A stretch of 64,000 nt of DNA. Source: a virus. Lineage: Duplodnaviria > Caudoviricetes. Both the position numbers and the translations under genes were made by a program. The DNA lies in IMG/VR virus record IMGVR_UViG_3300036868_000046, positions 14,783 through 78,782 of that record; one strand, given 5' to 3'. The notes below the pieces were generated by a model that saw only the letters and a program-made list of their open reading frames with translations, was not told where the DNA came from and made no database searches. Positions 16,003 to 58,893 of this stretch are shown here, piece after piece; the stretch's first letter is position 1; each line of letters begins with the position of its first letter.

Positions 16003-16578
16003 CTACTGGACGTCGCGGGTCTGGAGGCCGTCCAGCATGAAGCCGATGACCTTGATGTCGTCGGTCGCGCCGGAGTTGAGGCCGTCGAGAGCCGACACCG
16101 AGCCGATCGGCGTGAAGTCAGCGCTCGCCGCGAAGTTCTGGCGGACCGGGACGACGATCGGGCGGGCCAGCTTCAGGATCGCCGGCTGCTCCGGCGTACC
16201 GTTGTTGAAGATGGAGACCGTCGAGTCGAAGCCCCAGACGCCACCGCCCTGGGGGAAGTACCAGGCCGGGGCCTGGAACATCGGCTTGTTGCCGACGGTC
16301 AGCGTCCAGAACAGCTGGCTGGTCACGTTCATGTAGTTCTGGCGGCGGTTCGTGCCGTCGAAGAACATGAGGCACCGCAGCGCCAGGATGACGTAGGTCT
16401 GATCGGAGGCGAGCTGACCTGCGGTCTGCAGGTTGGTCAGCGCCGTGTTGCCGATGTTCGCGTTGCCGAACAGCTTGGTGCTGTTCTGGATCGCGGGAGA
16501 TGGGTCACCCGACGTACGAACGAGGGTATCCCAGAACGGCTGATGGAGCCGCTCCTTGTAGCCGTGAAGACGAGGCAT
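16003..16578 (-). CDS. Putative single-jelly-roll major capsid protein 1
   Basis: 191 aa, beta-rich, QPFWDT...KLFG...TNLQ.AGQL...PIVVPVRQNF...MLDGLQTRDVQ; AAGGA RBS; directly downstream of the core protein gene. Confidence 0.65.
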   Translation of the reverse strand: MPRLHGYKERLHQPFWDTLVRTSGDPSPAIQNSTKLFGNANIGNTALTNLQTAGQLASDQTYVILALRCLMFFDGTNRRQNYMNVTSQLFWTLTVGNKPMFQAPAWYFPQGGGVWGFDSTVSIFNNGTPEQPAILKLARPIVVPVRQNFAASADFTPIGSVSALDGLNSGATDDIKVIGFMLDGLQTRDVQ

Positions 16579-24462: not shown

Positions 24463-26184
24463 TCATCCGGTGCCGGTGAGCACCTCTCCCACCTTGCGAA
24501 GCCAGTTCTTGCCAGCCTGCGACATGAGGGGTGAGGTACCAGGCAATTTTGCCACCTTGCTCATGAACAAGTCAATGCCGTGCTCCTGAACCCACCCCAT
24601 GACCTCCACCGGCATGTGTGGCCTGGCGCTCTGGGCCACGATCTCCGGCTCCATCCGGTTGGAGAACGCGTTCTCCAGCAGCGACAGCATGGTCTTGATG
24701 GTGTCCGGTTCGATGGCGGGCACCTCGATCTGTGCCCCCTCGCTGGTCGTGACGATCTTGGGCTTGCGCCGCGCCGGCACGACCTGGTTGCCCACCTGGA
24801 TGAACTTCTGCCCGCTCTGGTCCTGCACGACCCGCGGACGCATCGTCGCGGGGTTCTGCATCATGCCCTCGGGCATGCCCGGCTGGCCGCCGCCCACGCC
24901 GGGAATGCGGCTGATGATCTTGCCGATGCCCTCGACGGCCGTGGGGCTCGTGAACGCCTCGACCACCTTGTCGATGCCGGACTTCTCGCCATCGCTCGAC
25001 CCGATCAGGTCCTTGAGCTTCTCGACCTCCTCGATCGAGTCGATGATCGATTTCTCCTTCTTCTCGCGGAGCTCCTTCACGTCCTGCCTGAGCTCCGTGT
25101 TGTCGCGGGTCAGCCGATCGATCTCGGCCTTGAGCGTGTGCGCCTGGACCTCCGCCGTCGTCTTCGCGGCGCTGAACGCTGTCTCGTGCGACAGCCGCAT
25201 CGCCGCGATCTCGCGCTCGTAGCTCATCTTGATCGACGCCGCGGCGTCATCGTGCGAGCGCCGCATGGCCTCGATCGTTCGGTCGTGGCGATCCTCGATG
25301 CGCTTGATGTCCTGCGTGAAGCCTTCCCGGAGCTGGCGGAGCTCGGATTCGTGCTGCGCGCGGAGCGCCGTCAGGCGGGCGCTGTCGCCCGTCATGAGCG
25401 TGTCCAGCATCTTGTCCCGGAACGGGTCGTCCGGCGGCTTCTGGTTGCGCAGCGCCGCGTTCTCGGTCTGGACCGCGTCGAGCTGACGTCGCAGCGCGGC
25501 CATCGCCTCGCGGTTCTGCTCGAACATCATCCGGATCGCGGGATCGATCTCCCGATCTGGCGGGCGCTCGTTCTTGATCTTGAGCTGCTCGGCCATCAAG
25601 TTGAACGCCGCCTTGGCGATGGTCGGTTCCTCATGGCTCATCGTCGGCGCGACGGTGGTCGGCTCGGCGGTCAGCGGAAGATGGTCGAGCCGCGGGTCCC
25701 CGGCGATGGTCAGGTGGCGATGGTTGACGAACTTCCACGAGCCGCGCTCGTTCTGGCGCATCACCTTGATGTGGTACTTGCCGCCGCCGAATTCCCTCTG
25801 GATCTGATCCTCGTCGGGAAACTCGTCGTAGCTGCGCAGGTGACCCTCGGTCGAGACGTCCTGCCCCGTCTTGGGGTTGCGCAGGTGCTTTGGCTCGGTC
25901 CGTCGCAACGCCACGCGAAAGACGCCGCCATCCGCGCTGAGGACCTGCAGCCAGTCACGCAGACCGGACTCCTCCTCGTCGCGAATGCGCTTCATGTTCG
26001 GCGACAGCTTCTCGCGGGCCGGCTCCTTGGCCGTCGGCGGAGCCGCCGGCGGAGGCGTCGTCTCCGCCGGCGCGTCCGGCACCGACTCGAGCGCGGTCTC
26101 CGAGTCAGGGACGGAGCTCGGCTCCGGCTCGTCGTCTGGCGGCTCGACGGGCTGCTCGACCTGCTTGACGGTGGCGCGCTTCAC
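24463..26184 (-). CDS. Large coiled-coil protein (possible scaffold or assembly factor)
   Basis: Pro/acidic N-terminus, long heptad region, helical C-terminal domain. Confidence 0.65.
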   Translation of the reverse strand: MKRATVKQVEQPVEPPDDEPEPSSVPDSETALESVPDAPAETTPPPAAPPTAKEPAREKLSPNMKRIRDEEESGLRDWLQVLSADGGVFRVALRRTEPKHLRNPKTGQDVSTEGHLRSYDEFPDEDQIQREFGGGKYHIKVMRQNERGSWKFVNHRHLTIAGDPRLDHLPLTAEPTTVAPTMSHEEPTIAKAAFNLMAEQLKIKNERPPDREIDPAIRMMFEQNREAMAALRRQLDAVQTENAALRNQKPPDDPFRDKMLDTLMTGDSARLTALRAQHESELRQLREGFTQDIKRIEDRHDRTIEAMRRSHDDAAASIKMSYEREIAAMRLSHETAFSAAKTTAEVQAHTLKAEIDRLTRDNTELRQDVKELREKKEKSIIDSIEEVEKLKDLIGSSDGEKSGIDKVVEAFTSPTAVEGIGKIISRIPGVGGGQPGMPEGMMQNPATMRPRVVQDQSGQKFIQVGNQVVPARRKPKIVTTSEGAQIEVPAIEPDTIKTMLSLLENAFSNRMEPEIVAQSARPHMPVEVMGWVQEHGIDLFMSKVAKLPGTSPLMSQAGKNWLRKVGEVLTGTG

Positions 26185-26633
26185 GGTCCCTCGTCTTCGT
26201 CGTCCTCGGGATCTTCTTCGTCGTCCTCTTGGGGCTCCTCTTCCTCTTCGGACTCCGCCCCCTCTTCGGGCTCATCGAGCGTGATGTCCTCGAGCAGAGA
26301 CTCGGCCTTGGACGCCAGGTCCATCCAGACGCCCACCGCGGCGACCGCCTGGGGGTCGTGCGCCACGCGTTTCTTGAGGTCGAGCATGAGCGCCCGGCCG
26401 GACACGATGAGCGCGGCGAACACGGCCGCACTGTCCGCGTGCAACACGTCCTCGCTGCCCTCGGCGAGCGCCGCGATCGTCGCGTCGATGTCGTCGATCT
26501 CTTCGAGCATCGACCCCACGAAGGGGAGAAGCTCGTCGGCAAGGAACTGCCGGACGTCCGAGGCGGGCACGAGCGGCCCATTGGGTAGCCGCGCGACCAC
26601 GGCTGCGAAATCGGTCTTGAGTTGGTCAATCAT
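26181..26633 (-). CDS. Hypothetical protein with poly-acidic tail
   Basis: GGAG RBS; tail EEEEEPQEDDEEDPEDDEDEGP. Confidence 0.65.
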   Translation of the reverse strand: MIDQLKTDFAAVVARLPNGPLVPASDVRQFLADELLPFVGSMLEEIDDIDATIAALAEGSEDVLHADSAAVFAALIVSGRALMLDLKKRVAHDPQAVAAVGVWMDLASKAESLLEDITLDEPEEGAESEEEEEPQEDDEEDPEDDEDEGP

Positions 26634-27121
26634 GGGGTCTCCTTGGGGGTCAGTGTCTCTTGAACGGAGCGATCGAACTCATCCGCCTCCGCACGAAGCT
26701 CGGCGTAGGCCCTGTCCCATGCTTGAACGAGCGCGGTATGGGACCTGAACTGCTTGGGGTCGGCGCACTCGTAGCGGTTGCACCGAAGGACCGGCGTGGA
26801 TCCCAGCGGGATCTCGATGCCCGGCGTGGGGTAGCAGTAGTGGTGATGCTCCTCGTGGAACACCGGCAGCGCCGTCACCACGGTCCCATCCGGCGTCACA
26901 CGCGCGAACCGCGACGCCGGCAGTCCATGGACCGGGAGGAGCACGCCGCTCGGCGTCGCAGCGTCTGCCTGGATGATGAAGTGATGGTAGTGCGAGCACC
27001 CGGCGGTGCAGAGCGACGGCCGCGGCCGGATCACGTCGCTCGACGAGGCGGTTGGTTGATGGTCTGGCGGCAGGTCGTCATCGTCATGGAGGTCTAACCT
27101 TGGCACCCTCCCATCATGCAC
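26630..27121 (-). CDS. Hypothetical Cys/His-rich protein (start uncertain)
   Basis: CTAGCSHYHH...CY...CNRYEC; overlaps next gene by 4 nt. Confidence 0.5.
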   Translation of the reverse strand: MHDGRVPRLDLHDDDDLPPDHQPTASSSDVIRPRPSLCTAGCSHYHHFIIQADAATPSGVLLPVHGLPASRFARVTPDGTVVTALPVFHEEHHHYCYPTPGIEIPLGSTPVLRCNRYECADPKQFRSHTALVQAWDRAYAELRAEADEFDRSVQETLTPKETP

Positions 27122-27238
27122 ACCTCAGTGGGAACTGCGTGGCGATTGCATGGGGATTCGATGGGAATTTCATGGGGGATCTGCGCACCTCCCTTGGCCA
27201 TGGGGCTGCCTTCCATGGCCAGCACCCCACAGGTAGAC

Positions 27239-27610
27239 GGCCTAACGGTGACACCAGCGGACGTGAGGCGCCTCATTTTCGCCCCGTTAGGGGCCTCACG
27301 GAGCCACCGTTAGGCGCCTCACGATGAGGTAATTCTACCGTTAGGGCGCCTCACGGTCGCCCAGGGCAGGCTAACCGCCCCACAGGGGCCAGGAGGGGCC
27401 AGGAGAGGCCCCCCAGCGCCGCCAGGCCCGCGCCGGGCCAGTCCCCCGGACTCGCGCCGGGGCCAACCCCAAGGCTCGCCCTGGCGACCTGGGCACCGTT
27501 AGGCGCCTCACGGTGAGGAATTCCTACGCGTAGAACGCGACGCGGCTCAAGTACGCGAACTCCCACGAGGTGCCACCCGGACTTCCCAGTGAGACTCCCC
27601 TACGCGTAGG
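27239..27610. promoter_or_regulatory. Cluster of imperfect palindromes in the divergent switch region
   Basis: CCGTTAGG(G)CGCCTCACG(G)-like units at 27284, 27307, 27338 and 27496; TGAGGCGCCTCA at 27264; CTACGCGTAG at 27524 and 27600. Confidence 0.7.
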
Positions 27611-27732
27611 GACGGACCCGGTTTCATAGTGAGGTCAGGCTGCAAACGCTTGAAAGCTTCAAGGCTGGATCTGGCAAGCTCGATGCAATACCGTTCTTCG
27701 ACCGGGCGAGGTTGCCCCGGGAAGGAGACGAG

Positions 27733-27954
27733 ATGCTGAATCTGGTGAGCTTCGAATCGTGGGACGACGTCCTCGCCGCCGCTCGGCGCGGCGATCGACT
27801 CTGGTACCACGCGCCACTCGACACCGCACCCCGGGCCATCGTGGTGCAGACGGTGTTCGAGAACGGCAAGATCCGCATCGATCCGATGTCCGCATCCGCA
27901 GACAACTTCACCGCGGACTGCGGCCATTTGCCCCGCTTCCGGCGCATGGGGTAA
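27733..27954 (+). CDS. Hypothetical early protein
   Basis: AAGGAG RBS, 73 aa. Confidence 0.6.
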   Translation: MLNLVSFESWDDVLAAARRGDRLWYHAPLDTAPRAIVVQTVFENGKIRIDPMSASADNFTADCGHLPRFRRMG

Positions 27955-28237
27955 CCCTCCGCCCCCCCCGGTCGTGAGGGTTCGGCGAGCGCCCGACACA
28001 CGTCGGGATCTCGCCAAGGTCTCACGGTCTCTCTGACAACCGAATAGCCCGAGACTCACGCCAGAGCAGCATTCCCCGGTGTCGCGCATGCCATGCGCGC
28101 ACCGGGCGCAGTCGAAACGCCGGACCACTCCCTTACCCGGAGCGCCGTGCTGCCGCGGACGTGGTCGTGAACGGGCAAGCAAGTTGTGACTTGCGAGAGC
28201 GGCGCGCGCCGATGCGCGCCCCTCATGGAGGTTACAA

Positions 28238-28516
28238 ATGAGAGTGCGCTTTCCGAGCATCGCCGATGTCGCGCAGAACTTGCGCGACATCAATGCCAAC
28301 GTCGAGGGGGAGTGCGACGTTCGGCTGTGCGTCTGGACAGATGGCACGTGGTGCGTGCGCTGGGGAGATGTGCAGTTCGATCCCAGCAGCGCCCCGTACT
28401 GTGGGGCCAGCGGTGTTCCCGGTGTCGTCGGCGGCAAGGTGCAGCGGTTCGACGCGCGCGCGATCGCGCGCGATCTGCTGGACCAGTGCGCAGAAATGCG
28501 CGCCCAGGACGAGTAG
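28238..28516 (+). CDS. Hypothetical early protein; its stop codon begins hammerhead 1
   Basis: GGAGG RBS; TAG at 28514-28516. Confidence 0.7.
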   Translation: MRVRFPSIADVAQNLRDINANVEGECDVRLCVWTDGTWCVRWGDVQFDPSSAPYCGASGVPGVVGGKVQRFDARAIARDLLDQCAEMRAQDE

Positions 28517-28577
28517 GCGAAACCGCGCCGAGCGCGGTCTGCAGGCCACCCCAAACCCTGCACTGACGAGCCTGGGG
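28514..28577 (+). ncRNA. Type II hammerhead ribozyme 1 (predicted cut after 28539)
   Basis: taggc-GAAAC-cgcg..cgcg-GTC-tgcagg..cctgca-CTGACGA-gcctg; loop I CCCCA pairs with tail TGGGG. Confidence 0.9.
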
Positions 28578-28588
28578 AGAACCTCGCA

Positions 28589-28657
28589 ATGTCCACAAAA
28601 GACTACAACCTCGATCAATCCCAACTACGGGCCAACACAGTGAGATCGCGCTTATGA
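28589..28657 (+). CDS. Possible 22-aa peptide
   Basis: GGAG RBS right after hammerhead 1; its stop overlaps the next ATG. Confidence 0.35.
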   Translation: MSTKDYNLDQSQLRANTVRSRL

Positions 28658-28905
28658 TGGAGCTTCTATGGTCTGAGGGATGGTCCGATGGTGTGACGTC
28701 CGCCGTAGTGTACCAGGCCAAATCCTGGCACGGTGCGTACCGAATCGTCCGCGCGGAGGGCGGATGCCGTGCGTGGTATACGCAATGGCGGGGGGCGTTA
28801 CCGCTGCAGACTATCAAGCTCGGCGATGCCCCGGACATGGGTCGCGCGCGAGCGCTATGCCAGTCTCATGCTCATGCCGTCAGATACGGATCTGACCCAA
28901 GGTAG
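28654..28905 (+). CDS. Hypothetical early protein
   Basis: Its TAG begins the half hammerhead. Confidence 0.55.
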   Translation: MMELLWSEGWSDGVTSAVVYQAKSWHGAYRIVRAEGGCRAWYTQWRGALPLQTIKLGDAPDMGRARALCQSHAHAVRYGSDPR

Positions 28906-28936
28906 GCGAAACCGCGCCGAGAGCGCGGTCTGCAGG
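28903..28936 (+). ncRNA. 5' half of a hammerhead (GAAAC, stem III, GTC, stem I 5' arm only)
   Basis: taggcgaaaccgcgccgagagcgcggtctgcagg, then 7 nt, then a full copy. Confidence 0.75.
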
Positions 28937-28943
28937 TCAGGAG

Positions 28944-29011
28944 TAGGCGAAACCGCGCCGAGAGCGCGGTCTGCGGGGGGGCACCCCTACCCCGCACTGA
29001 TGAGCCAGGGG
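28944..29011 (+). ncRNA. Type II hammerhead ribozyme 2 (predicted cut after 28971)
   Basis: Stem I tgcgggg/ccccgca, CTGATGA, stem II ggc/gcc, pseudoknot CCCCT/AGGGG. Confidence 0.9.
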
Positions 29012-29036
29012 ACAGGCCGACACCAGGAGAATCGCA

Positions 29037-29321
29037 ATGTTCGTCATTGTCTACGCCAATGAGGGCCCCGAACAGGGTACCGTATACCTGAAGTGGGAGC
29101 TTCGTGATAACGAGCCAATGGAGGCGCGCAAGTTCGCCGACCGAGTAGCCGGTTTTTTGGGGACAGAGGTGGTGGAGCCTTCGGGATACATCCCGAACTG
29201 CTGTGGTGATATCAGGGTGGAGTTCACCGAGCACGAGCCTACGGTGGATGCCGATGGGCGCTACCTGGGATCCGTCTGCATATGGAGCGGCGAGAGCTAC
29301 TACTTCTCGCGGGATGCATGA
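29037..29321 (+). CDS. Hypothetical early protein
   Basis: AGGAG RBS directly after hammerhead 2. Confidence 0.7.
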   Translation: MFVIVYANEGPEQGTVYLKWELRDNEPMEARKFADRVAGFLGTEVVEPSGYIPNCCGDIRVEFTEHEPTVDADGRYLGSVCIWSGESYYFSRDA

Positions 29322-29372
29322 AAGCTTACGATGACGGAGGCGGAGTACCACGGGGGCACGGGGCACGTGGAC

Positions 29373-29441
29373 TAGGCGAAACCGCGCAGTGAGCGCGGTC
29401 TGCAGGTGATGACGCCCTACCCTGCACTGATGAGCATGGGC
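29373..29441 (+). ncRNA. Type II hammerhead ribozyme 3 (predicted cut after 29400; weak stem II)
   Basis: Intact core; stem I tgcagg/cctgca; pseudoknot GCCC/GGGC; stem II only 2 bp. Confidence 0.75.
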
Positions 29442-29458
29442 TAAAGAGGAAGTCAACG

Positions 29459-30022
29459 ATGACACCGAAACACAAGCTCTGTGAGGCCATGTCCGAGTAC
29501 GGCCTCACGATGGACTGGACGTTCATCCCATTCCGGGGGGACCGCAAGGAGCGGCGCCTGCAGTGGGATATCACGCTGTATCACAGGAGTGCGCCCAGGA
29601 TCGGGGATGACACCCTCCCAAACGACGTCATCGTAACGAGATACGAGGCAGGGATCGGTCACTGTCCCAGCTACCCCGCCTATGGCGGGGTACCCACCGT
29701 CGCACAAGATTCCGCCATCGATTTCGAGGTGACCACAGGGTACCAGGCCCGCCCGCCACATGGCGGTGGTGCGGGTGACCGATTCGAGCGCGGAGCTCGG
29801 ATCGATCCAGATGTCGCCGAAGTGATGCACAGCCTACTCCTGGATGCGGAGGCGATCGATCACGCCTCGTTCGAGGCGTGGGCGGAGGAGTTCGGCTACA
29901 ACACCGACAGCCGGGCTGCAGAGCGCACCTACAAAGCGTGCCTCCGGATCGGGCTGGCCATTCGCGCCGCGGTGGGCGATGAGGCGTTGCGGGCCCTACG
30001 CTCCGCGGCGGAGGGCATGTGA
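29459..30022 (+). CDS. Hypothetical phage protein
   Basis: GAGGA RBS; LLLDAEAID...FEAWAEEFGYNTDSR.AE.TY..C motif recalled from phage proteins. Confidence 0.75.
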   Translation: MTPKHKLCEAMSEYGLTMDWTFIPFRGDRKERRLQWDITLYHRSAPRIGDDTLPNDVIVTRYEAGIGHCPSYPAYGGVPTVAQDSAIDFEVTTGYQARPPHGGGAGDRFERGARIDPDVAEVMHSLLLDAEAIDHASFEAWAEEFGYNTDSRAAERTYKACLRIGLAIRAAVGDEALRALRSAAEGM

Positions 30023-30228
30023 GACCCGCGAAAAGGTACGAGGTGGTTTGCCTCACATCGTTCGACCACGTCACCCCGGCACAGGAGGTCGAGATATGTG
30101 GTCGAACCAAGGTCATGCCCGAGCAGACCTTCCATTACGAGAATGGCCAGCGGATTGACCTCGGCAGTGCGCGGCGGCGCAAGGAGTTCATGGCGTACCA
30201 TGCCGGGCGTTTTGCCATCGCGGACTAG
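30019..30228 (+). CDS. Hypothetical protein
   Basis: GTGA overlap with the upstream gene; its stop lies inside motif A. Confidence 0.6.
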   Translation: MRPAKRYEVVCLTSFDHVTPAQEVEICGRTKVMPEQTFHYENGQRIDLGSARRRKEFMAYHAGRFAIAD

Positions 30229-30285
30229 GGCCGTTGTGCCCATCGACACCATCACCCCAGCGGTGGTGGATCGACCGACACAACA
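30214..30285 (+). ncRNA. Unassigned structured RNA motif, copy A (pseudoknot plus hairpin)
   Basis: GGGC/GCCC stem, GTTGTG/CACAAC crossing pair and a long inserted hairpin; near-identical copy at 30834. Confidence 0.6.
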
Positions 30286-30300
30286 TCCACAGGACATGAC

Positions 30301-30618
30301 ATGACGAACAAGATCTACAGCATCGTCCACAGCAACGGCATCACCGAGCGGCTGCCAGAGGGCAGCACGTACGCGGACGCGCTCGCCGCCGTCCGCGAGA
30401 CGTACACCGACCCCGAGATCGGTCACGACGGTGACATCGCGGATGGCGGCGATACTACTCTGGTGTGGCGAGACGAGGCGTCCGCCAGGGATGACGACGG
30501 CTGCTTTGCCGTTTGCTCGATCCGCGTGTCGCACCCCGAGCCGCCAGGCCGAGACGATCAGTCCGACATGCCAGAATTCATGCCCGTCCATGGACAGGGC
30601 TACGTGCGGCGAGCCTAG
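30301..30618 (+). CDS. Hypothetical protein; paralog of 32441..32713
   Basis: LP.GSTY.DAL..VR..YT...IGHDGDI..GG..TL.WRDE..A..DDG..AVC.I shared with 32441..32713. Confidence 0.75.
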   Translation: MTNKIYSIVHSNGITERLPEGSTYADALAAVRETYTDPEIGHDGDIADGGDTTLVWRDEASARDDDGCFAVCSIRVSHPEPPGRDDQSDMPEFMPVHGQGYVRRA

Positions 30619-30633
30619 GCGGACCAGCCGACC

Positions 30634-30822
30634 ATGCGGCGCGAACAATTGGACTCGTGGGTCCTGGCCCTGTGCAGCGAGGCGATGGCCGTCGACCCGA
30701 TCGCCACCGAGTGCGTGATCCGCGCACTGACCGGCGGCCACGAATCGTTTTGCCCGCAACCACATCCCTCCGAGCGCCTCCATCGTGCCGCCGCTGCATT
30801 TCTGAGGATCGCCCGCCTCTGA
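30634..30822 (+). CDS. Hypothetical protein
   Basis: 62-aa ORF between 30618 and motif B. Confidence 0.5.
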   Translation: MRREQLDSWVLALCSEAMAVDPIATECVIRALTGGHESFCPQPHPSERLHRAAAAFLRIARL

Positions 30823-30833
30823 CTCGGCGGCAC

Positions 30834-30904
30834 GCCATCGCGGACTAGGGCCGTTGTGCCCATCGACACCATCACCCAACGGTGGTGGGTCGACCGACAC
30901 AACA
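30834..30904 (+). ncRNA. Unassigned structured RNA motif, copy B
   Basis: Differs from copy A only in the hairpin loop and one position that improves pairing. Confidence 0.6.
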
Positions 30905-30918
30905 GCGGATCAAACAAC

Positions 30919-31338
30919 ATGACTAGCCATCGCGACCTCTATTTCCGGGGCAAGGCGGTACTCCCTCCGACGCAGCCCTCGGCGCCCGCCCCGGCATCCC
31001 TGCGCCGCGCTCCCGCGCACGAGCGCCACCCCCGAACGGTTCCGACACATCCCGCACGGCAGATGTCCCCACTGTGGGCGCCGAGTCCACAATCCGCCGA
31101 GGTCCGCCTGGCCGACCTCGAGACTGCCCGGGTGGTGGTCCGACGCGCCAGCCTCGCCTACGCCATCCCGCCCATCGCGCCGGAGGCGCCGGTGTCGCAC
31201 CCGGCGTATGTCCACGGAGAGGACCTCACCGCGCGAGATCACCGTGAGCCTTTCACGCTCGTGCGCGCGATGGGGTACGTTCTCGCTGTGGGCGCCCCTG
31301 GCGCCGGGCTGCTCTGGATGCTGATCCACCGCCTATAG
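30919..31338 (+). CDS. Pro-rich protein with C-terminal TM
   Basis: ATG right after motif B; its TAG begins hammerhead 4. Confidence 0.6.
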   Translation: MTSHRDLYFRGKAVLPPTQPSAPAPASLRRAPAHERHPRTVPTHPARQMSPLWAPSPQSAEVRLADLETARVVVRRASLAYAIPPIAPEAPVSHPAYVHGEDLTARDHREPFTLVRAMGYVLAVGAPGAGLLWMLIHRL

Positions 31339-31402
31339 GCGAAACCGCGCGGGCGAGCGCGGTCTGTGGGGGCTACCCCTACCCACACTGATGAGCCAGG
31401 GG
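31336..31402 (+). ncRNA. Type II hammerhead ribozyme 4 (predicted cut after 31364)
   Basis: Stem I tgtggg/cccaca (compensatory changes), CTGATGA, pseudoknot CCCCT/AGGGG. Confidence 0.9.
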
Positions 31403-31416
31403 ATTCAGGAGATCAC

Positions 31417-31632
31417 ATGCTCAAGGTCACGCAACGCATGATCAATGCCGTCGCCATCGCGACGGATGAGGCGAATCGCAAGATCGCCGCGGAACTGAAC
31501 ACATGGACCACGGGCCCCCGTGCCGGGTCCCAACAGGCCAAGGTCGGCACGCACCGCAGCGTGAAACACTATCGGCGCACGCTCGTCTCTCGTCACCCCG
31601 AGGTCACGGACGCGGCCAGGGTGAAGCTGTGA
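31417..31632 (+). CDS. Hypothetical early protein
   Basis: AGGAG RBS right after hammerhead 4. Confidence 0.65.
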   Translation: MLKVTQRMINAVAIATDEANRKIAAELNTWTTGPRAGSQQAKVGTHRSVKHYRRTLVSRHPEVTDAARVKL

Positions 31633-32066
31633 AGGTCACCACCCGTGAACAGTTCATCGCTTTGTTCGGCCGCGGGCGGCCGGAGGCGATGGAGTTCGAG
31701 AACTCCGTCATTCAGGCCATCGAGCGCGAGCATTTGCCGGACGACGCGCTTGCTGTGGTAGATGGTGGCGATGGTTCCGCGGCGTATTGGGACTGGCTCG
31801 CGAGCCAGGTCGAGCCGCAGTGCACGTGTGAATGCGGTAAATGGTCTGGGACGCGGTGCCGTTGGGGAGGACAGCGGTCCGACACGGTCATCGTGGAGTT
31901 CATGCCGGAGGCCCTCCGGGCGAGCCACGTCGCCGCTGGAAACAGCGGCACGTACCCCCACAACGGGGCGGAGCGTATCCGCGTGTCGCGCGACTGCGCG
32001 CAGTGGATGCGCGAGGAGGACCCGGAGTGGTGCTCCGAAGTTCGCCATCTGGCTCCTCGTCGATGA
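31629..32066 (+). CDS. Hypothetical Cys-containing protein
   Basis: GTGA overlap; CxC...C...C motif. Confidence 0.65.
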   Translation: MKVTTREQFIALFGRGRPEAMEFENSVIQAIEREHLPDDALAVVDGGDGSAAYWDWLASQVEPQCTCECGKWSGTRCRWGGQRSDTVIVEFMPEALRASHVAAGNSGTYPHNGAERIRVSRDCAQWMREEDPEWCSEVRHLAPRR

Positions 32067-32388
32067 CACGTGGGGTGTCGTCCGGTTCGCGGATGGCCGC
32101 GCCGACGTGCGCGCCGCCGTCGAGCGCGTCGCCGAGCTGTATCGCATCGGCGGAACGCCAGAGCAGTTTCGCGCCGCCGCCGCCGACGACGCCAGGGCCG
32201 CCGACGACGCCAGGGCCGCCGACGACGCCAGGGCCGCCGACGACGCCAGGGCCGCCGACGACGCCAGGGCCGCCGACGACGCCGTCGCCAGGGCCGTCGA
32301 CGCCGCCAGTTTCGCCTGGAACTGGGACGCCGCCTGGGTAGTGGCAGCGCGTGACAAGCTCCTTGAACTGCTCGGGGATTGCCCATGA
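32035..32388 (+). pseudogene. 3' fragment of a gene homologous to 63568..>64000
   Basis: 124 bp match 63877-64000 with 3 mismatches; no in-frame start with RBS of its own. Confidence 0.65.
32182..32283 (+). repeat. 18-bp tandem repeat gccgacgacgccagggcc (5 copies plus a partial; encodes ADDARA)
   Basis: Directly visible. Confidence 0.95.
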
Positions 32389-32440
32389 CCACCCGCCCGC
32401 CCGGCCAAAGCGGACCAACGCCCGAGCTACAATAGGACGC

Positions 32441-32713
32441 ATGAAAAACTACCGAATCATCCATAGCCACGGGCCAGTCGAGGTGCTGCCGGCGGGCAGC
32501 ACGTACCAGGATGCACTCGACAGAGTTCGCATGGCCTATACGCGTGCCGTCGTTGGTCACGATGGCGATATCTCGCAAGGCGGGCAGGTGACGCTCGCGT
32601 GGCGAGACGAGGAGACCGCCGCGGCGGACGACGGTAGCCGCGCAGTGTGCATGATCACGCTGCATACCGTAGACGTGCCCGCGGTGATCGCCCTCTGGAT
32701 GTTCTCGTTCTAG
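32441..32713 (+). CDS. Hypothetical protein; paralog of 30301..30618
   Basis: TACAAT-N7-ATG; its TAG begins hammerhead 5. Confidence 0.75.
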   Translation: MKNYRIIHSHGPVEVLPAGSTYQDALDRVRMAYTRAVVGHDGDISQGGQVTLAWRDEETAAADDGSRAVCMITLHTVDVPAVIALWMFSF

Positions 32714-32778
32714 GCGAAACCACGCGATTCTTGCGTGGTCTGCGGGGCATGCCCTACCCGCACTGAAGATGCCAGGGC
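32711..32778 (+). ncRNA. Type II hammerhead ribozyme 5 (predicted cut after 32740; extra U after CUGAAGA)
   Basis: Stem III cacgc/gcgtg (compensatory), stem I tgcggg/cccgca, pseudoknot GCCCT/AGGGC. Confidence 0.8.
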
Positions 32779-32797
32779 CAAAAAGGAAGAGAAGAAC

Positions 32798-33835
32798 ATG
32801 ACCCTCACAAGACGGGATTGCGCAGCGGACTTACCGGAGGGGACGGACCCCCTCATCGTCGATCTGCACCTGACGGCCACGGCCGCCGACCGTGTTCGAT
32901 CGCGATGCCAGACCGTGAGCAGCCACGCGCGCGCGTGGCTCCAGCTGGAGCCGGACGACGATGGCGCGGAGGCGCGGAGGCGGCTCCGCGCGCTGCTGGC
33001 CATCGAGCTGGGCGGCACCGGCGGCCCCATGGGATTTGGGGTCGACGGTGGCAATCGCACCGCGCGGATGTCGTGGGCGGCGCGACTCGGCAAGGGCCGC
33101 CGCCACGCCTCCGATGGCCCAGCGTGGGACGATGCGGTCCGCCGCGTGGCCACCTCCCTCGGGGAGGGCGAGGTCACCCCTGCCGATGTCGGTGAGATCG
33201 CCGGGCGATGTGGCCCGGATGACCTCGAGTGGCCGCTCGCCTACGCGCTGCGCCGCGCGCATGCCTGCCGCCTGGATGTGGACCAGGCGGCGCTGTGGGC
33301 GACATGCGCGCGGGTGTCCGCGACGCTCGCCGAGCCGGACTCCGGCGCTGGCCGCCTCGCCGCGCGCTACTCTCTGCGTACCAAGCCCCGGCTGCGTACG
33401 GCTTCCCTGTCACTTCGGTACCAGGATCCGGATCGGGCAGCTGATGCCGAACCAGGCCTCAGCTCGCTGAGTGGGGCGAACTCCCTCATCGATGAGCTCG
33501 TCGAGGACTTCACGGGGGATCCTGCCCCCGATTTCCTCGAGCTCGAGGAAAAGCGCGTCCAGACGTGGGTCACGTCCTCGCCCGACTGTGGCGAGGCACA
33601 GCTGCGCATCACCTGCGACGCGCCCATGAATCAGTACACGGTGGAGCTGCAAAGCCGGGCAGCGCTGCACCCGGCAGCGCTGCGCCTCATCGAAGCCGCA
33701 TGGATCCTCCGTCACGCGGGTGATGAGATCTGGACCACGGACGTCATCGTGGCCCACGAGGCCATGACCGAGATGCACCCGGATATGCTGCGCGCCGAGC
33801 GCGCGGCGTGGGATATCGCCGCCGATGCGGTCTGA
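32798..33835 (+). CDS. Hypothetical protein
   Basis: Purine-rich RBS after hammerhead 5; 345-aa ORF. Confidence 0.65.
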   Translation: MTLTRRDCAADLPEGTDPLIVDLHLTATAADRVRSRCQTVSSHARAWLQLEPDDDGAEARRRLRALLAIELGGTGGPMGFGVDGGNRTARMSWAARLGKGRRHASDGPAWDDAVRRVATSLGEGEVTPADVGEIAGRCGPDDLEWPLAYALRRAHACRLDVDQAALWATCARVSATLAEPDSGAGRLAARYSLRTKPRLRTASLSLRYQDPDRAADAEPGLSSLSGANSLIDELVEDFTGDPAPDFLELEEKRVQTWVTSSPDCGEAQLRITCDAPMNQYTVELQSRAALHPAALRLIEAAWILRHAGDEIWTTDVIVAHEAMTEMHPDMLRAERAAWDIAADAV

Positions 33836-34280
33836 TACCCCCCGCTGCGAGCTCCCCATCAGGTTCCGCAGGGTCAGTGCCGGGGTGTACTGCTCGTACA
33901 TGGAGGTCGGTGGGACGCCGGTGTTCACCATCGTGTCGGCATCGGTCAGGGAACGATGCTGGCTCACGACGCACGCGTCGCTGCGCACGCTGGCCCCGTG
34001 CGACTCCCTGGAGGACGCTTGTCGCCAGGTCAACGCGCTGGTCGCCGACGCGCTGGTGAATGCTTTCCGGGTCGTCGCCGCGTGGTCGCACGAGGCGTTC
34101 ATCGCCTCCGAGCTCGCCGCCGCGCGGCGGGAGAGGCGCGCCCTCCTCGTGGAGCACGTCATGGACGTGCTACCTCAATCGTCCATGCCTGACGCGCCCG
34201 ACCATCTGCGACCGGAGGTCGTGCGCGCGCTCGCCGAGCGCGTGGTCGACGCCATCGCACCGGCGCTCTGCCCTCGCTGA
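33825..34280 (+). CDS. Hypothetical protein
   Basis: Overlaps the upstream stop; start uncertain. Confidence 0.55.
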   Translation: MRSDTPRCELPIRFRRVSAGVYCSYMEVGGTPVFTIVSASVRERCWLTTHASLRTLAPCDSLEDACRQVNALVADALVNAFRVVAAWSHEAFIASELAAARRERRALLVEHVMDVLPQSSMPDAPDHLRPEVVRALAERVVDAIAPALCPR

Positions 34281-34336
34281 CCTCCCAAGGAGATACCAAT
34301 GACCCATGCTTATCCGGTCGACACCCAAGGAGCGGA

Positions 34337-34558
34337 ATGCTTACCGCTAAGTCTATCACTGACGACCAGATCCGCGAGTTGCGCGCGACGCTACTCCGTG
34401 AATCGGGCAATCAACTCACCTCGGAAACGGATGCGACCGGCATGGCTCTCTGTGATCTCGATAAGTACCCTCCCCACCTACGGGAGGATGCCCAGATCAT
34501 CAAGGACATCGCTCGAGAGCGCTGCGTCGAAATCATCAATGATCGAAGTGGCCGTTAA
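34337..34558 (+). CDS. Hypothetical protein
   Basis: AAGGAG RBS, helical. Confidence 0.6.
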   Translation: MLTAKSITDDQIRELRATLLRESGNQLTSETDATGMALCDLDKYPPHLREDAQIIKDIARERCVEIINDRSGR

Positions 34559-34573
34559 CCGGATAGGCATGCA

Positions 34574-34930
34574 ATGACCGCTTACATCGTTGCCTTCGCG
34601 CTGATCAGCGCCACCGCCTGCGCCTCCCAGGAGGCCCCGCTCGTGGGGGAGGTCCCAACGTGCTCCGGTCGCGTAGGTCGGAGCTCCGGCACCCTTCGGG
34701 TACACGGCGAGGTCGAGTGTCTGGACACGCAAGTCCTCACGCTGACGGTCGTCTCGTTCTCCGATGTGGGTGCCCCGTCACCCCTGGTGACGCAGACCTT
34801 CCAGACCGGATGCCCAGGCACCATCGACCTCGTCATCGCGGTGGCCGACACCGGCACGATCGTCACGGGCATGACCATGACGCCGGAGTCCGGCGGCATG
34901 GTGACGACGTGTCCGCTCACGGCTCCGTGA
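34574..34930 (+). CDS. Putative lipoprotein
   Basis: Signal peptide ending SATAC, followed by a beta-rich domain. Confidence 0.6.
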   Translation: MTAYIVAFALISATACASQEAPLVGEVPTCSGRVGRSSGTLRVHGEVECLDTQVLTLTVVSFSDVGAPSPLVTQTFQTGCPGTIDLVIAVADTGTIVTGMTMTPESGGMVTTCPLTAP

Positions 34931-35042
34931 GCCGATAGCGAGGCGCCACGCAACTTGAACCTTTCAGGTGTACAAAAGGGCATGGCCTGGTCCGATTCAC
35001 AAGGTCGGTAGGTCTGCGCTCCGAATTCGGAGAGGAGTCACT

Positions 35043-35453
35043 GTGACTACTACGACCGGCATACCCAGCATCCAGACACTGGTCATTGATGTTCTGCGGG
35101 ATATGTGGCCCGTGGAATGGTCCACGGCCGGGCGGATCGCGAACGCGATCGTCAACCGTCCATCGCCCGAGCCAGGGGACCTCGACATCAGCGAGAAGTA
35201 CATCGCCGCCACATGTCGCCGAATGGTGCGCGATGGCCGCCTGCTGTCCGGCATGCACGGTTTCGCCTTGCCCCTGGAACGCTATGCCGTTCGCCCGGAC
35301 GGGATGCTGTACGAGTTGGTGCGCATCGATCCGGGGTCCGATATCGTCATCATCATCGGACGGATGAGCCACGAAGAGGCGCTCGTATGCTCGACCTCGC
35401 TCAATGAGCACGATCGCAAGGTACGCGCCCTCCGCCAGGGCGGCAATCCGTGA
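35043..35453 (+). CDS. Possible winged-helix DNA-binding protein
   Basis: VIDVLR...STAGRIANAI...YIAATCRRMVRDGRL pattern; AGGAG RBS. Confidence 0.5.
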   Translation: MTTTTGIPSIQTLVIDVLRDMWPVEWSTAGRIANAIVNRPSPEPGDLDISEKYIAATCRRMVRDGRLLSGMHGFALPLERYAVRPDGMLYELVRIDPGSDIVIIIGRMSHEEALVCSTSLNEHDRKVRALRQGGNP

Positions 35454-35626
35454 GACCGGAACGGCCATTCACTCACACCGACGTGGTGCGCCTGGCGCGG
35501 CGTGCCTTGGCTCGCGCCCACGGTGATGCTGACAAGGCAGGTCGGTACGCGGCCGATATGGCCGACCGATATGAGTCGGCCAAGTGGGAGGCCATCATGC
35601 ACTACATCCGCGACGGCCACATCTAA
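35450..35626 (+). CDS. Hypothetical 58-aa protein
   Basis: GTGA overlap; translated by hand as MRPERPFTHTDVVRLARRAL...YIRDGHI. Confidence 0.5.
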   Translation: MRPERPFTHTDVVRLARRALARAHGDADKAGRYAADMADRYESAKWEAIMHYIRDGHI

Positions 35627-35645
35627 CCCCGGAGGAGTTTTCTCG

Positions 35646-36011
35646 ATGATAGAGATGAGTCTACCTATCAACAACCAGTTCACGATCGAGGTCAAGTTGT
35701 GCGACCAGCGTCTGCATGACGTCCTGACCTCGGGCATCGAGGGCGGCTGCGCCTATTGGGCGAGCATCGATTGCGGAGCTCATCAGCCGGGGTGGAGCAA
35801 CTACTTCACGGCCACGTTCTTCCCCCACGGGGACACCGCCATCCCTCGAGTGGGGCACACGCTATCCCTCGAGAAGCTGCGCTGCGGTCTGGCCATCATG
35901 GCGAACAAGTACCCGTTTCACTTCCGTGACGTGATGATGGAGACCGATGACGCCACGACGGGCGACGTGCTCGTGCAGTGCGCCCTGTTCGGCGAAATCG
36001 TCTACTGCTGA
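35646..36011 (+). CDS. Hypothetical phage protein
   Basis: GGAGG RBS; IEGGCAYW and DATTGDVLVQCALFGEIVY motifs recalled from phage proteins. Confidence 0.7.
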   Translation: MIEMSLPINNQFTIEVKLCDQRLHDVLTSGIEGGCAYWASIDCGAHQPGWSNYFTATFFPHGDTAIPRVGHTLSLEKLRCGLAIMANKYPFHFRDVMMETDDATTGDVLVQCALFGEIVYC

Positions 36012-38050: not shown

Positions 38051-38085
38051 CAACTTGCAAGTTGGATGGGGCAGCATCCCCATCC
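38051..38085. promoter_or_regulatory. Palindromes upstream of parB (candidate parS or operator)
   Basis: Perfect 14-bp CAACTTGCAAGTTG (38051-38064), followed by ggatgggg-N6-ccccatcc. Confidence 0.45.
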
Positions 38086-38243
38086 ATGGAGAGTCACCCA
38101 ATTCTGTCGGGGCGCGCGAGCTCCCCGGCGCGGCGATGGCGGTAGCCCGCGAGGTCGGTCCCCGACTCTCCCCTCCGACTGTACGCGAAGGGCTTCGGGA
38201 CCCCTCATCCCCCGGAGCCCCCGCCTCCGCAAGGAGATCCAAG

Positions 38244-39596
38244 ATGACGATGATGACGCAAGATCCCGAACTGATGGTTGTCGACGACAGCTACGACATG
38301 CCCAACGCATCGGACGATGACCCGATCGACGAGGATGCTCCAGACGATAGCCTCGAGGACGAGGAGGACGAGGAGGACGAGGAGGACGAGTCGGTCCTTC
38401 CATTCCGCACCCCCAATGAGGGTGCGGAGGACGACGACGACGATGATGATGATAATGTCGAGGTCGTGCCCGACGAGGATGACGAGGACGATGACGACAA
38501 CAAGGACACGATCCCGGACCCGCCCCGGATCGGGGTGGGGCGCGCCAGCGATGCGGTCGGCGAGCGCTGGGTCCGCTTCGGCGACCTGACGCTCGAGGCC
38601 AAGCACTGGACGAATCCCCGATCCGTGACGGGCCTCGACGACGCCAGCCTCAAGGTGCTGGCGGACAGCATCAAGTCGGAGACTGTCACCGACGAGACAG
38701 GTCGGGTCTTCGTCGGACTCATCGAGCGGATGAAGGTCATCCGACTCCGGGGACCGAACGCGACCATCACCGAGCTCGTGGTGGACGGGCAGCGCCGGCA
38801 CCGGGCGATCGAGCTCGCCGGGTTCGACGAGGATGCCATGGTTCCCGTTCTGGACCTGGAGGGTCAGCCGGTCGACTGGACGCGTGAGCTCGCGACCCAG
38901 TACCTGTTCTCCGCGATCGAGAGCGTCGGCACCCGGGCTGGGCTCTCGACCTACGAGCTCGCGGATAATGCCGTCCGCCTCCGCGCCTCGGACGACCCGG
39001 ACACCGGCGCCCAGTACACCCAGGGCAAGATCGCGCGCGCGATCGGGCGGAGTGAGTCCTGGGTGAGCAAGATGCTCAAGGCTCGCGAGCACGCGAGCCC
39101 CAAGCTCCTCCACCAGTGGAAGATGGGCGAGATCACGGACGAGCAGTTCCGGGACCTTGCCTCCTCCAAGGAGGAGGAGCAGGAGAAGAAGGGCCAGGAG
39201 GTCGCCGAGGCCAGGGCGTCCGCCGGCCGGAGCGCCGCGCGTACGCTGGCGCGAGAGACCAAGGCAAAGGCGGTGCGCGCTGCCAAGGCGCCCCCGGAAG
39301 CCAAGCCGAGCAGGGCGAAGGGCCAGGGGCCGGCGGTGCGCGGGCCGCAACAGGAGATGCCGGCGGCTCCGCCGGTGCGCAAGCCGCCGCCGGCGGTCGT
39401 CGATGACATGCTCGCGACGGGCGAGAAGTACCCGCCCACCTCCGACTACGTCAAAGGCATCATGGACGGGGTCAGGTGGGCCACCGGGGGGCTCGACCCC
39501 GCGAAGTTCGGCAAGGCGTGGAAGACGTACATCGATCGGACCTCCGGCCAGATTGCCGAGAAGTCCAAGAAGACGTCGGCCCGCGCCAAGAAGTAG
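38244..39596 (+). CDS. parB: ParB-like partition protein with acidic N-terminal extension
   Basis: NPR...LADSIK...LVVDGQRRHRA (ParB N-domain), HTH TQGKIARAIGRSESWVSKML; AAGGAG RBS. Confidence 0.85.
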   Translation: MTMMTQDPELMVVDDSYDMPNASDDDPIDEDAPDDSLEDEEDEEDEEDESVLPFRTPNEGAEDDDDDDDDNVEVVPDEDDEDDDDNKDTIPDPPRIGVGRASDAVGERWVRFGDLTLEAKHWTNPRSVTGLDDASLKVLADSIKSETVTDETGRVFVGLIERMKVIRLRGPNATITELVVDGQRRHRAIELAGFDEDAMVPVLDLEGQPVDWTRELATQYLFSAIESVGTRAGLSTYELADNAVRLRASDDPDTGAQYTQGKIARAIGRSESWVSKMLKAREHASPKLLHQWKMGEITDEQFRDLASSKEEEQEKKGQEVAEARASAGRSAARTLARETKAKAVRAAKAPPEAKPSRAKGQGPAVRGPQQEMPAAPPVRKPPPAVVDDMLATGEKYPPTSDYVKGIMDGVRWATGGLDPAKFGKAWKTYIDRTSGQIAEKSKKTSARAKK

Positions 39597-57156: not shown

Positions 57157-58893
57157 ATGCGCATTCTGATCACCGGGGGCTGTGGCTTCCTCGGCTCCCA
57201 CCTGGTGGAGCACTTCCTGAAGACGACCAACTACGAGGTCGTCGTGCTCGACAAGCTCACCTACGCGTCGAACGGCTACGATCGTCTACGAGACGTCCGC
57301 GCGGGGCTCGTGCAGTCGAGCTCCAAGCCGCTCGAGGCGGCGAAACACTGGGAGGACCGCGTCCGGGTGTTCAACACCGACCTGTCGCAGCCGCTCCCTC
57401 CGGGGGTGGTTCAGGAGATCGGTGGGATCGACTACATCATCCATGCGGCGGCGGAGAGCCACGTCGACCGCAGCATCAAGGATCCGCTCCCGTTCCTGAT
57501 GAGCAACGTGATCGGCACCCATCATCTGCTCATGTCCAGGACCGTGGCGTACGCGCGGCGCGTATTCATCGTGTCGACCGACGAGGTCTATGGCCCGGCG
57601 TCATGGGGGGAGCAGGGGTTCGATGAGGAAGAAAGGTTCCGCCCGGCGAACCCGTACGCGGCGTCGAAGGCGGGGGCCGAGTGCCTGGCGTTCGCCTACG
57701 CCAACACGTACCGGCTTCCCATCACCATCGTGAACACGATGAACCTCATCGGCGAGCGCCAGCACCCGGAGAAGTTCGTCCCGCTGGTGATCCGCAAGGT
57801 GCTCGAGGGGGAGACCGTGCAGATCCACGCCGATCCGAGCAAGACCCGAGCGGGAACCAGGTTCTATCTCCACTGCAGGACGTTCGCGAACGCCCTCGCA
57901 TGGCTCATCACGACGGATGGTGCCTGCCCTCAGAAGCTGCACGTGTGCGGCGAGGTCGAGCTCTCGAACCTCGAGCTCGCCACCACGATCGCCGACCTCA
58001 TCGGCAAGCCACTCCAGTACGAGCTCGTGGACTTCCACTCCTCGCGTCCAGGGCATGATCTCCGGTACGCCATGAACGACGCCTACATCCAGTTGCTCGG
58101 CTGGCGACGCCCCATGGGCATCATGGATTCGCTCAAGAAGACCGTCGCATGGTACCTCGCGAATCCGCAGTGGCTCCAGCTGCAGGACACCGTCGCCGGG
58201 ATCACGATGAACGTGAAATGTCAGGCCAAGTCCGAGTGGCCGAAGGATCGAGTCATCGTAGGAGACCGAGTCAGGCTGACGAGAACCGGCCTGGCCGGTT
58301 CGGTTACTGGCGTCGATCCATCCATCGGGCTAGCGTCTGTTGCCGTCGATAACGGCCAGCTTAGTAATAACCTGATCGAAAACCTGCAGCACATCGAATC
58401 GCCAGATGACGACGATGCCGACGACTTGCTAGCAGTTGCGGACTTGATCGCCGCAGAGGGACTGCCGGGCGAGCTTCCTGCCGAGGAGGAAGGGGTGCTT
58501 GTAGCGGACGGACTTCCCTGGGTGACAGCGGCGCTCACCGACTGCCAGGTCGGGATCTTCGCGAACCCGCTCGGCGCCGACATCGAGGATTCACATCGCC
58601 GGGACGCGCAGCAGGCGCGGGATCAGGCCATCCTGGCGAAGATCGACGACCGGCTCGCCTCCTTGGAGGCGCGCGCCCGACCCAAGCCGGTCCAAGGGGC
58701 CATGGTCCGGGTGACCGATGGCTGGTTCGCGGGGGCCACCGGGAAGATCGTCGCCGTGATCCACGCGGAGGAGCCGGATGCGCGGGAAGCCTACTCAGTG
58801 GCGCTGACGGCGGTGTCCTCGCTGACACAGGCGAAGTACATGGGCATGGCGCCGCTCACCTTCGTCGCGGAGCAGTTCGAGGTCCTGTCATGA
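57157..58893 (+). CDS. rmlB: dTDP-glucose 4,6-dehydratase (RmlB-like) fused to a ~240-aa C-terminal extension
   Basis: ILITGGCGFLGSH, DKLTYA, HAAAESHVDRSI, STDEVYG, NPYAASK, RPGHDLRYA, TVAWY; reading continues past the usual end. Confidence 0.88.
   Translation: MRILITGGCGFLGSHLVEHFLKTTNYEVVVLDKLTYASNGYDRLRDVRAGLVQSSSKPLEAAKHWEDRVRVFNTDLSQPLPPGVVQEIGGIDYIIHAAAESHVDRSIKDPLPFLMSNVIGTHHLLMSRTVAYARRVFIVSTDEVYGPASWGEQGFDEEERFRPANPYAASKAGAECLAFAYANTYRLPITIVNTMNLIGERQHPEKFVPLVIRKVLEGETVQIHADPSKTRAGTRFYLHCRTFANALAWLITTDGACPQKLHVCGEVELSNLELATTIADLIGKPLQYELVDFHSSRPGHDLRYAMNDAYIQLLGWRRPMGIMDSLKKTVAWYLANPQWLQLQDTVAGITMNVKCQAKSEWPKDRVIVGDRVRLTRTGLAGSVTGVDPSIGLASVAVDNGQLSNNLIENLQHIESPDDDDADDLLAVADLIAAEGLPGELPAEEEGVLVADGLPWVTAALTDCQVGIFANPLGADIEDSHRRDAQQARDQAILAKIDDRLASLEARARPKPVQGAMVRVTDGWFAGATGKIVAVIHAEEPDAREAYSVALTAVSSLTQAKYMGMAPLTFVAEQFEVLS

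Follow-up and report, generated by a model that had tools for sequence, protein, structure and literature searches.

The locus examined here raises the question of whether a series of short elements lying between the genes of an uncultivated virus are genuine hammerhead ribozymes and, if so, what they do to the transcript that carries them. The locus belongs to a 64,000-nt stretch of DNA (henceforth the window) comprising bases 14783-78782 of the IMG/VR record IMGVR_UViG_3300036868_000046, a viral genome of 78,782 bp with direct terminal repeats and a completeness rating of 100%. In an original prediction, made from the letters of the window, the elements were read as an array of type II hammerheads punctuating an early-gene operon. 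We find that the window encodes five genuine type II hammerhead ribozymes on the plus strand (HH1 to HH5) plus one half copy, and that related viruses have equivalent arrays in which the genes are shuffled and the flanked genes differ in identity.

All five elements, at the positions and on the strand originally given for them, were borne out by a scan with the Rfam family RF02276 (Hammerhead_II), by a core pattern search, and by a structural parse. Using RF02276, whose gathering score is 37 bits, in a permissive scan of the window, we obtained plus-strand matches at 28515-28577, 28945-29014, 29374-29446, 31337-31405 and 32712-32783, each of which aligns end to end with the model (model positions 1-66). 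HH2 and HH3 exceed the gathering score and the other three copies lie at 29.9-32 bits, with E values of 0.014-0.05 for the window and 4e-6 to 1.5e-5 for the genome; these three are the copies with longer or atypical loops, or an extra U. The same scan applied to the whole genome returned these five copies only, apart from one 14.8-bit fragment. The core pattern search gave five matches, compared with none in 100 shuffles, and the structural parser independently recovered the same five elements, with cleavage predicted after the C at 28539, 28971, 29400, 31364 and 32740. The new 5' ends proposed earlier for mapping (28540, 28972, 29401, 31365 and 32741) agree exactly with these computed positions.

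The sequences given in the original prediction for stem I, stem III and the pseudoknot proved correct in the structural parse, from which the parts of each copy were read. Each copy was also scored with R1, a covariance model built from the five window copies that found 96 hammerheads (69 distinct) in the window and at 42 other viral loci. HH1 (28514-28577, plus strand; 32 bits with RF02276, 82.8 bits with R1) runs from UAGGC-GAAA through stem III (ACCGCGC/GCGCGGU), GUC and stem I (UGCAGG/CCUGCA) to CUGACGA and GCC, with its predicted cut after 28539 and a pseudoknot between the tail UGGGG and the loop CCCCA. In HH2 (28944-29011, plus strand; 44.8 and 87.1 bits), the predicted cut after 28971 is followed by stem I (UGCGGGG/CCCCGCA), CUGAUGA, GCC and the pseudoknot CCCCU/AGGGG. 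HH3 (29373-29441, plus strand; 40.5 and 83.3 bits) would be cut after 29400 and has a stem I of UGCAGG/CCUGCA, CUGAUGA, a stem II of GC/GC only and the pseudoknot GCCC/GGGC. For HH4 (31336-31402, plus strand; 32 and 87.3 bits), the corresponding parts are a predicted cut after 31364, stem I UGUGGG/CCCACA, CUGAUGA, GCC and the pseudoknot CCCCU/AGGGG. Finally, HH5 (32711-32778, plus strand; 29.9 and 72.8 bits), with a predicted cut after 32740, carries a compensatory change in stem III (ACCACGC/GCGUGGU), a stem I of UGCGGG/CCCGCA, the pseudoknot GCCCU/AGGGC, and a core in which CUGAAGA is followed by an extra U and then GCC. Contigs of four independent wetland DNA runs match every copy with zero differences, and these runs show no ribozyme variants from which covariation within the population could be read.

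Our analysis also identified a truncated sixth copy at 28903-28943 (plus strand; repeat family D8; 14.8 bits with RF02276) that was absent from the first reading. This half copy consists of a stem II strand, GAAAC, stem III, GUC and the 5' strand of stem I (UGCAGG), lacks CUGANGA, and stands in tandem with HH2, running directly into the TAG of the latter. Its stem I strand perfectly complements the 3' strands of HH1 and HH3, and its stem III strand can pair with that of HH2. The half copy is probably a recombination scar. The stretch spanning the half copy and the start of HH2 (28902-28972) is covered by short contigs in two DNA runs.

The catalytic core is intact in all five complete copies, as CUGA(C/U/U/U/A)GA, GAAA and GUC, and all share the topology II-GAAA-III-UH-I-CUGANGA-II, in which stems I and III are closed by loops and stem II is open. 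In the structural parse, the stem lengths are 6-7 bp (I), 7-9 bp (III) and 2-4 bp (II). The core-adjacent pairs, whose absence served Perreault et al. 2011 (PMC3088659) as a criterion for rejection, are present as A-U (A15.1-U16.1), U-A (N1.1-N2.1) and G-C (N10.1-N11.1) in HH1 to HH4. HH5 has its extra U between A9 and G10.1, with the G-C pair after it; the A15.1-U16.1 pair is common to all five copies, and each has closing pairs beside the core. Among the 27 distinct hammerheads of the lineage formed by this virus and its relatives (described below), 22 have U, UA or UU after the core, so the extra U of HH5 is a conserved variant of the lineage as opposed to damage; insertions of this kind, of one or two nucleotides ahead of G10.1, are penalized by the RF02276 model.

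That the stems, and the pseudoknot between loop I and the 3' tail, covary had also been claimed, and both parts of the claim held up. In an alignment of the 96 hammerheads found with R1, which takes in related and unrelated viral loci, standard pairs occupy 97.6% of cells, as compared with 71.5% for shuffled data and 32-45% with partners slid 1-3 columns out of register, the alignment having been fitted to the model in a way that favours pairs and the slid controls having been taken from that identical alignment. Compensatory changes on both sides were found at 13 of 16 pairs. In every copy of the window the pseudoknot is 4-5 bp long and has changed on both sides, and across 64 distinct copies its mean helix is 3.84 bp, compared with 2.89 bp when tails are swapped between copies (none of 1000 swaps reached the observed value). 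For the window together with the relative L008, the figures are 5.25 and 4.35 bp, respectively, and 5 of 2000 swaps reached the observed value. The intact catalytic nucleotides, together with stems and a pseudoknot that change by compensation, point to selection on the RNA fold and not on sequence identity alone.

The five copies lie within 4.3 kb, all co-oriented with the genes and each between a stop codon and the next start codon. The original prediction had every copy begin on the TAG of an upstream open reading frame (ORF). This is so for HH1, HH4 and HH5, and also for the half copy, whose opening TAGs are the stop codons of genes 28238-28516, 30919-31338, 32441-32713 and 28654-28905, respectively; however, the TAG of HH2 closes no ORF with a start codon, and that of HH3 ends only a 14-codon ORF, the preceding gene having stopped 52 nt earlier. 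The predicted spacing to the next ATG stood, in that every copy is separated from an ATG by 11-25 nt that follow the pseudoknot tail and contain a purine-rich Shine-Dalgarno sequence, although the ATG 11 nt past HH1 (at 28589) opens merely a 22-codon ORF, the TGA of which overlaps the ATG of gene 28654-28905. The Shine-Dalgarno-like GGGGAG of HH1 forms part of the pseudoknot tail itself. Across the lineage, 18 of 27 distinct hammerheads begin on TAG, TGA or TAA. In unrelated viral arrays the upstream stop codon is 4-51 nt away and overlap is rare (5 of 78), and at the other viral loci (86 hammerheads) the next start codon follows stem II by a median of 23 nt. The order of stop, ribozyme and start is thus general, and the embedded stop codon is a trait of this lineage.

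A search of related viral genomes, as had been suggested, found the same element between different genes in L008 and in 13 further metagenome contigs of the lineage with arrays of this kind. L008, the final 11.3 kb of a genome of 86 kb that has terminal repeats, contains homologues of four array genes (39-58% identity), with the shared genes in reversed order relative to the window, and five hammerheads. A homologue of gene 29037-29321 precedes a hammerhead in both L008 and the window (HH3), whereas the family of gene 32798-33835 has a hammerhead before the gene here (HH5) and after it in L008 and relatives. One hammerhead of L008 (10439-10530) has a stem III that is about 30 nt longer and UA after the core, and the same form occurs in the contigs L062, L067 and L073.

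We consider it likely that the array cuts a polycistronic transcript into gene modules during transcription, leaving 5'-OH and 2',3'-cyclic phosphate ends. The grounds for this are the sequence, fold, covariation, strand, position and conservation described here, and, for cleavage, published tests of other members of the family. Each element would fold as it is transcribed into a three-way junction locked by the pseudoknot of 4-5 bp and would be cut after the C of GUC, yielding pieces that end at 28539, span 28540-28971, 28972-29400, 29401-31364 and 31365-32740, and extend from 32741 onward. The upstream piece would retain its own stop codon and have as its 3' end the GC-rich hairpin of stem III, carrying a 2',3'-cyclic phosphate, and the downstream piece would begin with a 5'-OH buried in the stem I hairpin, with a Shine-Dalgarno sequence and start codon 11-25 nt past the pseudoknot tail. 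As the products would be joined by the 2-4 bp of stem II alone, rapid separation is expected. The hairpin-capped ends may then insulate the decay and translation of each module from those of its neighbours.

A number of observations weigh against this account. HH1, HH4 and HH5 fall 5-7 bits short of the RF02276 gathering score (32, 32 and 29.9 bits, respectively), and stem II of HH3 is just 2 bp. Minimum-free-energy folding gives the full hammerhead junction for HH1 and HH5 only, indicating that alternative folds compete. The sequencing runs matching 27600-33600 comprise wetland metagenome DNA only, with no RNA run among them. We infer the promoter, how far the transcript extends and its "early" timing, the last of these from the presence of small orphan genes next to a divergent non-coding stretch. 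A 2019 review repeats the idea of transcript processing while calling the functions of bacterial ribozymes largely elusive (PMC6765202), and a benefit in stability or insulation is unproven for any phage hammerhead array.

None of three other explanations is favoured. Cleavage could be conditional, depending on translation that closely follows transcription, on Mg2+ or on other signals, such that the ribozymes act as switches of downstream expression. With the stop codon inside the 5' strand of stem II, a ribosome that terminates there would sit over stem II, GAAA and a portion of stem III. Such an overlap between stop triplet and hammerhead start occurs in four of the six window elements, with real genes upstream, and in 18 of 27 distinct lineage copies; the Shine-Dalgarno-like sequence of HH1 belongs to its pseudoknot tail. 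Regulated cleavage has also been raised for phage hammerheads by Perreault et al. (PMC3088659). Nevertheless, the overlap is rare in unrelated viral arrays and so is not needed for the array design, HH2 and HH3 lack a real stop overlap, and the elements have no aptamer-like extra domain, and we regard such switching as unlikely.

More improbable still is that the pieces are ligated after cleavage, either by the ribozyme or by an RtcB-type ligase of the host, to give circular gene-carrying RNAs or spliced products. Each piece lying between two cuts would start with the 3' two-thirds of one hammerhead and finish with the 5' third of the following one, and these could dock through a shared GGC/GCC stem II, and the half copy could pair with the remnant of HH1 around gene 28654-28905, since its UGCAGG is a perfect complement to the CCUGCA of HH1. 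Stem II strands are common to all copies and the 5' thirds are nearly identical, which would make any pair of copies compatible, and 5'-OH and 2',3'-cyclic phosphate ends are the ones that RtcB joins. Against this, docking by a stem II of 2-4 bp would be weak, duplication explains the shared 5' thirds more simply, and spliced or circular products from such clusters have been sought by Perreault et al., who detected neither (PMC3088659). Similarly remote is the notion that the elements act as DNA, either as near-identical recombination points of about 65 bp that shuffle cassettes or as selfish repeats, with RNA cleavage incidental. Homologous genes are ordered differently in the window and in L008, with hammerheads retained at the junctions, the tandem half copy shows illegitimate recombination at an element, and the window copies are more alike among themselves than they are to those of L008. 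However, a role as DNA sits poorly with five copies that keep all catalytic nucleotides and whose stems and pseudoknot change by compensation, and with the constant spacing from start codons that every copy keeps on the coding strand.

The slots between stop and start codons that hold hammerheads are also occupied by a second, previously undescribed structured RNA motif of about 65 nt, which we call R2 and which is the most novel lead to come from this locus. Its two copies in the window are R2a (30225-30292, plus strand), which overlaps the stop codon (TAG) of gene 30019-30228, with the ATG at 30301 located 16 nt downstream, and R2b (30845-30911, plus strand), which lies 15 nt before the ATG at 30919. 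They were first seen as 72-nt repeats (D12/D16) at 30214-30285 and 30834-30904 that start on TAG and end 15-16 nt before ATG. The motif has the form (U)AGGGC-GUUGUG-CCCA-UCGG, a covarying hairpin, and CUGA-CCGA-CACAAC-GAAC, and is followed by a Shine-Dalgarno sequence and AUG.

A pattern search recovered 21 copies of R2 (17 distinct) in the window, in L008 (6567-6635) and in 13 metagenome contigs (L063-L075), and a covariance model found one additional copy; of the 14 related metagenome contigs that the R2 pattern detected, 13 have hammerheads. The parts GGGC-GUUGUG-CCCA-UCG and GA-CCGA-CACAAC-GAAC are constant, and the inner hairpin takes at least five sequences with pairing kept; the outer helix (GUUGUG/CACAAC) was fixed by the search pattern, and its invariance follows from how the copies were found. 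The RNAalifold prediction is a long, interrupted hairpin in which 6 of 20 pairs show compensatory changes; on these copies an H-type pseudoknot (GGGC/GCCC plus loop to CACAAC) is indistinguishable from it. The fold of R2a was calculated at -29.5 kcal/mol, and the G-U pairs, together with model scores of 72 bits on the plus strand and 24.5 on the minus strand, indicate that the R2 fold belongs to the plus-strand RNA. Rfam searches with the window, with 121 nt around R2a and with six related contigs (E up to 10) returned hammerheads only and no family for R2, and strings from the R2 sequence had no match in the searchable literature. A search with the R2 model did not find the motif in unrelated hammerhead-array phages. 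Loosening the R2 pattern gave 13 further matches in the viral collection, which we rejected as chance since they lie within coding sequence and are without the GGGC prefix or the hairpin.

In every related contig, R2 is co-oriented and intermixed with hammerheads. Moreover, R2 stands directly upstream of the homologue of gene 32798-33835 in all 12 contigs holding one (at least eight distinct sequences), a position that in the window is taken by HH5. The contig L066, in which R2 follows the gene of this family, was not counted as a second slot swap, as an extra inserted gene is involved. R2 may serve as a site at which a host nuclease processes the transcript, as a binding site, or as a new self-cleaving RNA. 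It is tempting to regard the hammerhead and R2 as interchangeable junction modules, with R2 standing in for the hammerhead, either as self-cleaving RNA of a new class or as a dedicated processing signal, although we give this only a small chance of being correct. Were it true, HH5 and R2 ahead of the same gene family would constitute a natural swap experiment. A hammerhead and R2 ahead of one gene family could separate the effects of cleavage, of capped ends, or of another mode of action. The virus is a useful specimen, as its genome is complete, related genomes have the same genes shuffled around the ribozymes, and a second conserved motif shares the slots. What is new here is the finding of shuffled equivalent arrays in relatives, the recognition of the extra U of HH5 as the norm of the lineage, and the R2 motif.

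The setting of the array was defined by third-position GC frame analysis, which shows minus-strand genes up to 27121 and plus-strand genes from 27733, with about 610 nt of non-coding DNA (27122-27732) between the two blocks. The promoter driving the array is presumably inside this region, where direct repeats (D11, D13) at 27305-27356, 27494-27545 and 27584-27609 are candidate operators or promoters for the array transcript. A co-oriented block of small, mostly orphan genes with ribozymes between them extends on the plus strand from 27733 to 33835, the hammerheads being located in its initial 5 kb. Its genes are 27733-27954, 28238-28516, 28589-28657, 28654-28905, 29037-29321, 29459-30022, 30019-30228 and 30301-30618, followed by 30634-30822, 30919-31338, 31417-31632, 31629-32066, 32107-32388, 32441-32713 and 32798-33835. 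A consensus scan of 26800-34500 found neither a sigma-70-like promoter nor an intrinsic terminator, the consensus being one that may not correspond to the promoter type of the host; the lack of such internal motifs fits, weakly, a single long transcript. The block genes are nearly without database relatives, as comparison of about 35 proteins with PHROGs and Pfam yielded for the block only phrog_4273 and a weak match to phrog_6738, the latter for gene 32441-32713, and outside it a ParB-like domain and an epimerase (see below), and 26000-36000 had no megablast match in the GenBank phage collection.

Within the block, the small genes 30301-30618 and 32441-32713 are paralogues (54% identity over 80 amino acids), the former preceded by R2a and the latter followed by HH5. 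The ORF at 32107-32388 contains an 18-nt coding tandem repeat at 32184-32299 with five exact units and one diverged unit, and at 32024-32325 the depth of the DNA runs rises two- to three-fold and contigs break. Low-depth contigs from two DNA runs join 28465 to 30401 via 10 other letters, which may reflect a variant or related strain without HH1-HH3 and R2a, or an artefact of paralogues at 90% likeness.

The window has a G+C content of 66%, and its sequence is contained in five wetland metagenome DNA runs. Outside the block, the protein encoded by 38055-39596 has a ParB-like domain and is 52% identical to a protein of the relative L073, and 57157-58893 encodes an NAD-dependent epimerase/dehydratase resembling GDP-mannose 4,6-dehydratase (E 1e-39). 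Neither Terminase_6N nor HK97-type Phage_capsid (Pfam) had a match across the whole genome, and the large minus-strand genes have almost no PHROG matches. The single-sequence AlphaFold model of a putative capsid protein (16003-16578, minus strand) was unusable (pLDDT 33).

The use of five or more hammerheads as punctuation between genes had been thought unusual, but this view is not upheld by what is found in other viruses or by the literature. An exact subtype pattern matches 42 other IMG/VR contigs, and in the RF02276 scan of those 42 whole records ten hold 11, 9, 9, 9, 8, 7, 6, 6, 5 and 5 copies, several of the ten being related to one another. Perreault et al. 2011 reported that multiple hammerheads often flank individual genes or small gene blocks in prophages, showed that three prophage clusters are cleaved in vitro at every ribozyme, described the pseudoknot, and proposed that long phage transcripts are processed into single-gene mRNAs (PMC3088659). 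The array is therefore a genuine and well-formed new example of a layout described in 2011, and by itself leaves existing knowledge unchanged.

Like the clusters of Clostridium scindens, Azorhizobium caulinodans and Agrobacterium tumefaciens (PMC3088659), the array consists of several co-oriented hammerheads in intergenic gaps, of type II with a pseudoknot of at least 4 bp between loop I and the sequence after stem II, and the flanked genes are not conserved. Whereas those clusters reside in prophages of cultured bacteria, this one belongs to a free, complete viral genome of 78.8 kb with terminal repeats from wetland metagenomes; it differs further in having five copies and a half copy, stop codons inside stem II and a second motif in the slots. 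In Desulfovibrio vulgaris, three type II hammerheads have been shown by cyPhyRNA-seq to cleave in vivo (PMC8782182). They too lie beside hypothetical or phage-like genes, and two of them are close together with both products captured from cells, but they are three elements of a bacterial chromosome as opposed to a five-copy array in a virus. As for R2, it resembles twister-sister, pistol, hatchet and the RAGATH candidates in having been found via the neighbourhood of ribozymes (a strategy described in PMC6765202) and differs from them in matching none of those Rfam families (E up to 10, short input).

A comparably short distance between hammerhead and start codon is seen in HHphage of the haloviruses HF1 and HF2, where the first gene of an early polycistronic transcript has its start codon 13 nt downstream of the ribozyme and the mapped 5' end of that transcript is within 3 nt of the cleavage site (PMC3088659). 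HHphage is a single, core-variant element of an archaeal virus, whereas the array here has five canonical cores.

In terms of mechanism, and by analogy only as opposed to membership, the array may also be compared with two systems in which intercistronic cuts that leave hairpin-capped ends uncouple neighbouring genes. The early polycistronic mRNA of phage T7 is processed by RNase III, and RiboJ is a synthetic ribozyme insulator. The former depends on a protein enzyme of the host and the latter is engineered, whereas here the RNA would cut itself.

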